Shown here one piece after another: positions 40,947-42,999 of a stretch of 64,000 nt of DNA (its first letter is position 1; every line of letters starts with the position of its first letter). The position numbers were made by a program, and so were the translations under genes. Under the pieces are notes generated by a model. The model was not told where the DNA came from, searched no databases, and saw nothing but the letters and a program-made list of their open reading frames with translations. Source of the DNA: a virus; the IMG/VR virus record IMGVR_UViG_3300009159_000032; one strand, 5' to 3'.

Positions 40947-41912
40947 ATGAAAATACAAGAACTAGTAGAACAACAGCAGCTAAATGAACTAGATGTCGGG
41001 CAAGGCATCGGCAAAGCGGTTGGCGGAGTGGCCAAAGGCATAGGAGCTGTTGCAGGTGGTATTGCAGGTATTCCCGGTGCAGTAAAGAAAGGATATCAAG
41101 CAGGTAAAGCCGCAGTGGGCGGTAATGATACAACACAACCTGCAACTGGAACAGCACCTTCGGGTGCTGCTCAGTTTTCTTCTCCAAGTTCAAATCCTGT
41201 AACTATTAGAAGTCAAATTCGTCAACATCAAGCTGCGATTAGTCAGTTACAACAACAGTTATCAGCACCGGCTGATGATGAAGAAGATACTACAGAACCA
41301 GCACCAAGTACATCTAATTCCAATGTTAGACCATTTGTAAGAACAACTCAGCCAAGTAGCACGGCTCAACCGTTACAATCTACAGATCAAACAGCACAAG
41401 CTCCTGCAGATACTGTACCGCAAAGTCCAGAAGAAAAAAGAAAAGCAGATCTAGCCGCGGCTGCAGATGTTGCACAGCAAGACATGGCAGCAAATCCTGT
41501 ACCGACTCAACAAACAACAACAGTTGCACCTCAGACACCAGAAGAAATTAGAAAAGCCAAACAGGCCGCAGCCGCACAGGCCGCACAAGATCAAATGGGT
41601 CCTCCAGGACAGCCAGTTGCTCAACCTACAACAGCACCTGCTCCAACTGGATTAGGCGCAGCAGGCAATATTCGTCCTGGTTCTCCTCAACTTGATCCTA
41701 AAGCACAACAGGCTGCAACCAAAGCTAGATTACAAATGCAACGTGCTGGCGGTGTAAGTACTGCTACAAAAACTGGAACTGGATTCAAACAATCTCGAGT
41801 CGGAGTACCTGTACAGAAGATGATAGGTTCTAACCCAGACGGGTCTCCTAAGTTTGCCACAGTGCGTGAAAGCACAGAACTATACAGTCGCTTCTTAGGG
41901 CGTGTTCTTTAA
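40947..41912 (+). CDS. Low-complexity Ala/Gln/Pro/Thr-rich late protein, possible internal head protein
   Basis: Late promoter TATAAATA 40912-40919, SD AGGA; N-terminal LVE/LNE sites; 37-aa tandem repeat. Confidence 0.6.
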   Translation: MKIQELVEQQQLNELDVGQGIGKAVGGVAKGIGAVAGGIAGIPGAVKKGYQAGKAAVGGNDTTQPATGTAPSGAAQFSSPSSNPVTIRSQIRQHQAAISQLQQQLSAPADDEEDTTEPAPSTSNSNVRPFVRTTQPSSTAQPLQSTDQTAQAPADTVPQSPEEKRKADLAAAADVAQQDMAANPVPTQQTTTVAPQTPEEIRKAKQAAAAQAAQDQMGPPGQPVAQPTTAPAPTGLGAAGNIRPGSPQLDPKAQQAATKARLQMQRAGGVSTATKTGTGFKQSRVGVPVQKMIGSNPDGSPKFATVRESTELYSRFLGRVL

Positions 41913-42127
41913 AAGAACGGCATTTGTATTTTCTTAGTAGTATCGAGATTGTCTTTAATAATCTCGCTAATAATTTCAATATCTTCTATACTTAGGTCAA
42001 ACGATTCTGAGAATGACAAACTTCCTCGCATGTACCAGCACAGTTTGTACAGTTGATTTTTTAAGGCTTTTGTCTGCTTTTCCATTTTTTCACTTAGCTC
42101 TTGAATTTCTTCAAGGTTAAGCGACAA
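41909..42127 (-). CDS. gp51-like tail assembly ORF; probably the -1 frameshift extension of the upstream chaperone
   Basis: WYMRG..S..E...L...I..IKDNL..TKK..PFF; only a TTG start with poorly spaced SD; in the -1 frame of 42133..42999. Confidence 0.65.
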   Translation of the reverse strand: MSLNLEEIQELSEKMEKQTKALKNQLYKLCWYMRGSLSFSESFDLSIEDIEIISEIIKDNLDTTKKIQMPFF

Positions 42128-42132
42128 AAGCC

Positions 42133-42999
42133 TTAGGCGAAAAAATTTGATGGATCAAATTGTATAGGTACACTAATTTGATCCTCAGTTACTCCGGCTT
42201 CTCGCATTTCGTCCGTAGTATCAATTACCATCGGCTTAGCAGTGTTATTCTCACGTAGAGTCTCTATATGATTTTTAATTTTGTCAAAAATTTCTTTGTC
42301 AGTATTAGTTAAGAATTCGTTGATAAATTTAGGATCGCTAGTAGCTCCTTGACTACTTTCAATATGATATACACTGTCATTGATAATACCAATAGTAAGT
42401 TGATTTAACTTAGCAAAACTTTCTTTAAATGCTTTAATTTTGTCTTCTTCGCTGACAGACTCGTCGTTAACTAATTGAATAATTTTTTGAGTTTCAAATG
42501 TCTGTAAGGCACTACTAGTCATAGTTTTATAATTGATAGGACGTACATACACAGTCAAATCTTCATTAATAGGAACTTCTTCAGTCCATGTAATTTGAGT
42601 CTGTAGTTGATCTAGTAATCTACGAAGATCAACTTGATACTCGCTGTTGAACTCTGCTATATTAATAGGAACAGTCATGTACTCGCCGTAGGTAGCAATA
42701 CGGATTGCTATCAATATTACATCAAGATCTAAATTTGGACACTGCCAAGCGTTCTTAATATTTGGCATACAGTTTTGAATAACATCGACTACTGCCTGAC
42801 CATTCATGAGAGCATCGGGAATTTTAAGAGCTAATTCGTCTTTAGCTGTCATTGAGTAAACAGGAAATTCTCCGCTTTCTGGTAAAACTAAACTTCCTTC
42901 AGGCCAAAAGTTTCCCCCGCTGGGTAAACGAATATAGATTTTAGGTTGGCGCATCATGCCCATTAAGGGATTTACTGCTGGTTGTTGCTGTGGAACCAT
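42133..42999 (-). CDS. gp26: Baseplate hub assembly/tail assembly chaperone, gp26-like
   Basis: RQPKIYIRLPSGG..PVYSMTAKDELALKIPDALMNGQA..IQNCMPNI..DLDVILIAIRIATYGE. Confidence 0.8.
   Translation of the reverse strand: MVPQQQPAVNPLMGMMRQPKIYIRLPSGGNFWPEGSLVLPESGEFPVYSMTAKDELALKIPDALMNGQAVVDVIQNCMPNIKNAWQCPNLDLDVILIAIRIATYGEYMTVPINIAEFNSEYQVDLRRLLDQLQTQITWTEEVPINEDLTVYVRPINYKTMTSSALQTFETQKIIQLVNDESVSEEDKIKAFKESFAKLNQLTIGIINDSVYHIESSQGATSDPKFINEFLTNTDKEIFDKIKNHIETLRENNTAKPMVIDTTDEMREAGVTEDQISVPIQFDPSNFFA
42139..42145 (-). other. -1 ribosomal slippery heptamer T-TTT-TTC
   Basis: Minus strand reads TCA AAT TTT TTC GCC TAA; the -1 frame reads TTT TTT CGC CTA AGG CTT TTG TCG and continues through the 72-aa ORF. 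Confidence 0.7.

Follow-up and report, generated by a model that had tools for sequence, protein, structure and literature searches.

A gp26-like gene in the IMG/VR virus record IMGVR_UViG_3300009159_000032, a stretch of 64,000 nucleotides (nt) hereafter referred to as the window, is predicted to give rise to two proteins of 288 and 363 amino acids (aa) by a programmed -1 ribosomal frameshift at the slippery heptamer T TTT TTC, stimulated by an RNA stem; the probability of this reading is put at about 0.88. The source of the window is an uncultured T4-related jumbo myophage. A -1 shift at this heptamer, in the manner of the lambda tail chaperone genes G/GT, had been proposed in an earlier note made from the sequence of the window, and the proposal is supported by the arrangement of 92/92 split homologous loci and of six cultured phages, by the downstream frame of Pseudomonas phage PA5oct, which has no start codon, and by natural fusions of the two frames. 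Comparative support for a programmed -1 ribosomal frameshift, as judged from the sequences, is very strong. The slip site with its frame relation, the conserved extension, the fusions in frame, the covarying stem and the complementarity with gene copy number have each been observed by computation and are described below.

Slippery heptamer and conserved extension

The 288-aa protein is a member of the Pfam family PF12322 (T4_baseplate), matched over residues 49-254 with 35.9 bits against a gathering cut-off of 24.5, and it also matches phrog_150 ('baseplate hub') with an E-value of 5e-13; a match to phrog_1749 is weak (35 residues only, E 0.0015). Judged by the chaperone gene, the closest cultured relatives are Sinorhizobium phage Phosso, Agrobacterium phage Atu_ph07, PA5oct and phages of the RaK2/121Q type, with identities of 26-32%. 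The 3' end of the gene reads TCA AAT TTT TTC GCC TAA, and the heptamer (42145..42139) is placed two codons before the zero-frame stop TAA (42135-42133). The -1 frame is open for 78 codons, opening only three codons 5' of the heptamer, and reads F-F-R-L-R-L-L-S-L-N-L-E-E and onwards without a stop until the TAA at 41911-41909, giving a trans-frame fusion of 287 + 76 = 363 aa. The gene end, the heptamer, the stop-free -1 frame and the product lengths of 363 and 288 aa had all been given in the earlier note and were confirmed by the sequence, as was a 72-aa open reading frame (ORF) inside the extension, with a TTG start at 42127 preceded by TAAGG and the three nucleotides CTT. The features of the region are collected in Table 1.

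Table 1. Position, strand and basis of the features discussed in the text
Feature	Position	Strand	Basis or remark
gp26-like zero-frame gene, short form of 288 aa, PF12322 hub-assembly chaperone	42133..42999	minus	ORF and family match
-1 frame extension, 76 codons and stop, first codon CGC (Arg) directly after the slip	41909..42139	minus	read from sequence
Slippery heptamer T TTT TTC, X XXY YYZ phase, P-site TTT, A-site TTC	42139..42145	minus	read directly
Predicted stimulatory RNA structure	42062..42135	minus	13-bp outer stem and inner hairpin; zero-frame stop codon in the stem foot
687-aa putative tape measure or virion structural protein, divergent neighbour	43076..45139	plus	ORF; name from synteny
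Portal protein gp20, T4-type	45143..46846	plus	PF07230 at E 7e-110
TATAAATA	43042..43049	minus	read directly; ~43 nt upstream of the chaperone gene ATG

A wide scan of IMG/VR gave at least 600 pattern matches with 598 confirmed relatives, the best 80 of which were analysed together with 17 IMG/VR relatives found earlier (43-93% identity), the window, Phosso and Atu_ph07, making 100 loci. The chaperone gene and its extension are split in 92 of these loci and fused in frame in the other eight. All 92 split loci have the two frames in the -1 relation with an in-phase heptamer within the short overlap window, while none is in the +1 relation and none has the frames spaced apart. The same heptamer and -1 extension are found in 17/17 of the earlier relatives, and the same arrangement occurs in six further cultured jumbo phages outside the analysed loci (PA5oct, RaK2, XaC1, Serratia BF, a Vibrio phage and Escherichia phage A4). 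Phosso, Atu_ph07, PA5oct and RaK2 each carry NNT TTT TTC close to the gene's 3' end, with a homologous -1 extension of 73-79 aa. Heptamer and frame, the conservation of which across related phages had been put forward as a check on the proposal, are thus kept in the split loci and in the cultured phages alike.

The codon usage at the site is distinctive. NNT TTT TTC is invariant in 82/82 distinct homologous genes; the codon 5' of the Phe pair is GAT, AAT, ACT, AGT, CAT or GGT, ending in T each time, and the second Phe is encoded by TTC in all 82, yet TTC makes up 23% of the Phe codons elsewhere in the same genes. With T at 36% of the third positions elsewhere in those genes, the heptamer is expected at a frequency of ~0.065 per independent x-F-F, and its occurrence is far above chance. 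The zero-frame stop follows 1-7 codons past the heptamer everywhere. The base after the heptamer is always G in the 82 genes, and selection on the -1 frame protein is indicated from the first codon after the heptamer, because the final C of the heptamer and this G begin a conserved Arg codon.

In a search of 1.84 billion cluster representatives, the profile made from the extensions matched 433 proteins. The majority are orphans, 40-98 aa long, whose N-termini are ragged; about 20 others are proteins of 319-351 aa that carry the extension at their extreme C-terminus, and all of the eight long proteins examined consist of PF12322 and the extension in a single frame. The junctions of the in-frame fusions (..D-x-x-x-x-F-R-x-x-L-I..) match the junction predicted for the window, ..F-D-P-S-N-F-F-R-L-R-L-L.. 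(FDPSNFFRLRLL). The alignment of the extensions has 16 invariant columns.

Predicted RNA stem and alternative explanations

A stimulatory structure 3' of the heptamer is predicted by folding and covariation. Its 13-bp outer stem is formed by UAAGGCUUUUGUC (42135-42123), perfectly paired with GACAAAAGCCUUA (42074-42062), and encloses a 6-bp hairpin with a GAAA loop, CUUGAA-GAAA-UUCAAG (42115-42110 with 42105-42100). The minimum free energy of the window structure is -26.4 kcal/mol, with a z-score of -3.9 relative to shuffled sequences. The GCC-TAA-GGC palindrome noted earlier as following the site is present, and was rejected as a stimulatory element in its own right, being merely the foot of this stem, which the earlier note had missed.

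The outer stem was recovered as the RNAalifold consensus of 19 sequences, and across the relatives it has 10-13 bp, starts 3-6 nt past the heptamer and carries compensatory changes, including those in Atu_ph07 and Phosso. In the 19-sequence alignment 89.5% of the stem cells are paired, compared with 76.5% in shuffles, none of 500 shuffles reaching so high a value; seven of the ten stem pairs have changes on both sides, and the pairing falls to 36-54% when the partner is slid by 1-3 columns. PA5oct has a stem of different sequence at the same place, in which AAUCCUAGU pairs with ACUGGGAUU. Among 87 loci, the 90 nt past the heptamer fold with a mean of -19.9 kcal/mol, versus -13.8 kcal/mol in control windows of the same genes, and the stem start in this folding is most often 6-8 nt past the heptamer.

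The mechanism proposed is as follows. Most ribosomes would stop at the zero-frame TAA and release the 288-aa short form. On U UUU UUC, a minority would be made to pause by the RNA stem, the foot of which lies 3-6 nt downstream, with tRNA-Phe on UUU in the P site and on UUC in the A site. Both tRNAs would then slip back by one base onto UUU UUU in a tandem slip, and the shifted ribosomes would resume at CGC (Arg) in the -1 frame and read 76 more codons, yielding a minor 363-aa long form made of the first 287 residues of the short form and a helical C-terminal module. Both forms may act as chaperones in the assembly of the central hub, the tape measure and the tail tube without entering the virion. 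As a pair made from one gene they would correspond to gp26 (short) and gp51 (long) of T4, following the same logic as lambda G/GT. We infer that the shift is ribosomal, and likewise its efficiency and the function of the two forms as chaperones.

Transcriptional slippage, by which the polymerase would add one U in the six-U run and a fraction of the mRNAs would encode the long form in one frame, is the foremost alternative to the proposed mechanism and is improbable. It would act at a homopolymer run, which the site is, and its protein outcome would be almost identical. In each locus, however, the run consists of six T, neither more nor fewer, while 8-9 bases or more are usual at known bacterial slippage sites; moreover, the X XXY YYZ phase is always kept, and a covarying stem so close downstream is a signature of ribosomal pausing with no role in polymerase slippage.

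It is highly improbable that two separate genes are present, with the 72-aa ORF initiating by itself at its TTG through TAAGG (translational coupling) and no fusion protein being made. The TTG and its weak TAAGG do exist, and a small ORF is annotated separately at this place in several GenBank records, but the annotated starts are inconsistent across the records. Independent initiation is excluded in PA5oct, as ATG, GTG and TTG are all absent from the 75 codons of its extension; that of RaK2 has no start codon in its first 31, the first one being at codon 32. In addition, the conserved F-F-R-x-R-L-L of the extension lies upstream of the TTG, the TAAGG is sequestered within the stem, and the in-frame fusions join exactly at the shift point. 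A homopolymer assembly error or a recently broken fused gene has a negligible probability, for although homopolymer runs are error-prone in some sequencing chemistries, the same arrangement recurs in 92 independent assemblies and in finished cultured-phage genomes from different laboratories, with a stop shortly past the heptamer everywhere and a dedicated covarying stem. Both independent initiation of the downstream ORF and an artefact can be considered effectively excluded.

Several points weigh against the programmed ribosomal frameshift. F-F is a conserved C-terminal protein motif, invariant even in T4, and accounts for a part of the heptamer; likewise, both arms of the stem coincide with codons conserved in the -1 frame (R-L-L and T-K-A-L-K), and their conservation is partly driven by the protein. 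The sequences compared are related and the counts are not independent events. The shift is, for every member of the family, a prediction from sequence. No sequence or fold link to the lambda-type chaperones was detected: a Foldseek search of the PDB with the 288-aa model found nothing with an E-value of 0.001 or less, VIA-align 2 against 48,161 chains gave generic helical hairpins only (Z up to 8.1) and neither a chaperone fold nor any other specific one, and the chaperone profile searched against PDB sequences matched designed helical proteins only (E > 0.08). Finally, homology between the extension and the tail of T4 gp51 was not detected by BLASTP, hhalign or hmmsearch, and phrog_150, while spanning the tail of gp51, does not reach into the extension in the fused homologues.

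Relation to known tail chaperones

The link drawn earlier between the window gene and T4 gp26 (208 aa) and gp51 (249 aa) is borne out by their common membership of PF12322. T4 has two genes of this family, giving a short and a long form that differ by a C-terminal tail, gp26 being the domain alone and gp51 the domain (residues 1-201) with a 48-aa tail. T4 gp26 ends in ..E-F-F-E-L-L, with the same F-F motif, and the T4 late-promoter-like TATAAATA upstream of the window gene is a further likeness. The two systems differ in that the T4 genes are two and divergent, with F-F encoded by TTC TTT, which is not slippery, and with no slip site, whereas the window has one gene and a -1 shift; the window protein also has about 80 extra residues and has lost four Cys.

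These four Cys belong to two CxxC pairs resembling a zinc ribbon (residues about 114-116 and 261-271), which are lost in the window protein and its 15 closest relatives and kept in the other 60 of 76 aligned homologues, as well as in Phosso, Atu_ph07, PA5oct and RaK2; T4 gp26 has the second pair only. The long form ends in P-F-F in the clade of the window (..M-P-F-F) and in P-I-L or S-F-L in more distant relatives, and the short form ends in ..N-F-F-A. The F-F motif thus ends both forms in the window clade and may be a C-terminal docking motif common to them. A likeness of the extension to the gp51 tail seen by eye was dropped, as no significant match was obtained. The start of T4 gene 25, which is in the -1 frame with respect to gene 26, overlaps the stop of the latter (TAATG; L005 7803); as no slippery heptamer is present, this overlap is ordinary coupling and involves no fusion.

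A conserved -1 frameshift of tail assembly chaperone genes, with lambda gpG/gpGT as an example, is reportedly the subject of work by Xu, Hendrix and Duda in 2004 and by Levin, Hendrix and Casjens in 1993. The window gene resembles gpG/gpGT in that the -1 shift is placed a few codons ahead of the stop and gives a minor long form containing the whole short form, in its position beside a putative tape measure gene and in its presumed role in assembly. It differs in its heptamer (T TTT TTC here, G GGA AAG in lambda), in its strong downstream stem, in the size of the short form, which at 288 aa is twice that of gpG; no similarity of sequence or fold between the two was detected. The lambda-type gene order, with the chaperone gene between the tail tube and the tape measure, on the same strand and upstream of the latter, is also absent, the window gene being divergent. 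The earlier link between gp26/gp51-like proteins and G/GT stands for the architecture. Kinship with the lambda-type chaperones would be argued by analogy, from the likeness in gene architecture, the neighbourhood and the known genetics of T4 26/51, homology not being demonstrated. Phage P2, in which E and E+E' are produced (Christie et al. 2002, PMC135442), is like the window phage in having a contractile tail and a -1 shift on a six-T run in a tail chaperone gene; its protein is small and of an unrelated family, and P2 keeps the order tube, chaperone and tape measure.

The AlphaFold model of the 288-aa form has a mean predicted local distance difference test score (pLDDT) of 90.3 and a predicted template modelling score of 0.84. 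The model of a fused homologue has a pLDDT of 91.1, and its extension forms three to four helices, one of them of 30 residues; fold searches of BFVD with this model matched the T4-like 'baseplate hub assembly protein' of many myophages, with a best E-value of 3e-16. Uncharacterised proteins of 500-690 aa from phages of the phiKZ type (Erwinia Special G, phiEaH2, Ralstonia RSF1 and Klebsiella Eowyn) were also matched at E-values of about 1e-4, and these model-based matches give hints of a hub-chaperone domain that may reach beyond the T4 superfamily.

The finding is genuine and well supported, though expected, given the known class of frameshifts in tail chaperone genes to which it belongs, and the core idea of a frameshift in T4-like chaperones has very probably been published already. 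The passage of PMC10885494 that deals with Vladimirov, Gautam and Davidson 2022 (Virology) speaks of a short gene and a long fused gene replacing frameshifting, and PMC12846349, where it cites Vladimirov et al. 2022, does so with reference to slip signals of the poly-T kind in TAC-N genes from T4-like phages; going by these citing passages, that study apparently concerns the same gene family and the same question. A search of open papers, which did not take in Vladimirov et al. 2022, found none describing the shift in jumbo phages of the RaK2/PA5oct/Atu_ph07 type or the covarying stem, and the word 'frameshift' is absent from the papers found on PA5oct, Atu_ph07, RsoM2USA, the Erwinia Eneladusvirus phages, XacN1 and CBB. 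A joined coding sequence or long form is absent from 8/8 GenBank records inspected (Phosso, Atu_ph07, PA5oct, RaK2, XaC1, BF, a Vibrio phage and A4), in which the extension is left blank or given as a hypothetical small ORF.

The finding is of value chiefly for annotation and for the view it gives of how a frameshift is replaced by gene duplication in evolution. Phages of the PA5oct and RaK2 type are therapeutic candidates and jumbo-phage models, and a corrected annotation is consequently of practical value. The shift would bring the T4-related phages into line with the long-tailed phages at large, among which the production of two chaperone forms through a -1 shift is otherwise universal, and would account for the paralogs 26 and 51 of T4, with several natural replacements of the recoding signal by gene duplication. 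The invariant heptamer and the covarying stem also constitute a clean, testable frameshift cassette.

Copy number, evolution and gene neighbourhood

The number of PF12322 genes complements the type of locus. Records of the frameshift type, namely two IMG/VR genomes estimated to be 92% and 100% complete, PA5oct and RaK2, have one PF12322 gene each, the copy number for the phage of the window being taken from the related near-complete IMG/VR genomes. Fused-type IMG/VR records have two adjacent copies in 5/5 cases, the second being a short paralog without the extension. The long in-frame gene is always accompanied by a tandem short paralog (L027-L033, L047), in the order short-long in 7/8 loci and long-short in L032/L033.

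A maximum likelihood tree of the shared domain, without a known root and with very long branches leading to T4, places two-gene lineages at a minimum of three positions among the frameshift-type lineages, and its well-supported branches force at least three changes. The shift may have been replaced repeatedly by duplication, the direction of this change being inferred. A broader proposition, that the T TTT TTC shift with its covarying long-range stem is the original and still dominant mode of expression of the PF12322 hub chaperones across the T4 superfamily, and that duplication and in-frame fusion repeatedly gave rise to the two-gene state, in T4 (26/51) and in three or more other lineages, is tentative and rather doubtful at present. 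If true, an ancestral shift would close one reported exception, that of the T4-type phages, to the universal frameshift of tail chaperones, and would furnish a natural series for studying the gain of recoding signals or their loss to gene duplication; it would be undescribed if the 2022 Virology paper treats the two-gene solution only.

The gene neighbourhood agrees with that of the cultured relatives. The order portal, putative tape measure and chaperone is also found in Phosso, PA5oct and RaK2, the chaperone gene being divergent there too. The earlier note had placed the chaperone gene next to, and divergent from, the tape measure gene; the 687-aa neighbour does adjoin it and is divergent, while its identity as a tape measure is less secure, following only from synteny and from remarks that the records of RaK2 and PA5oct contain. 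It matched no Pfam family and nothing in the PDB, and had three weak, unrelated PHROG matches (best E 1.1e-5); its syntenic homologues are a virion protein detected by mass spectrometry according to the PA5oct record and a protein 'similar to tail tape measure' according to the RaK2 record. The portal and tape-measure-like neighbours are tagged 'ESI-MS/MS' in the PA5oct record and the chaperone gene is untagged, which is the only hint on its non-virion role.

The chaperone gene and the 687-aa gene are separated by a short divergent intergenic region (43000-43075) containing TATAAATA, which is the T4 late-promoter consensus and a putative promoter of the chaperone gene.

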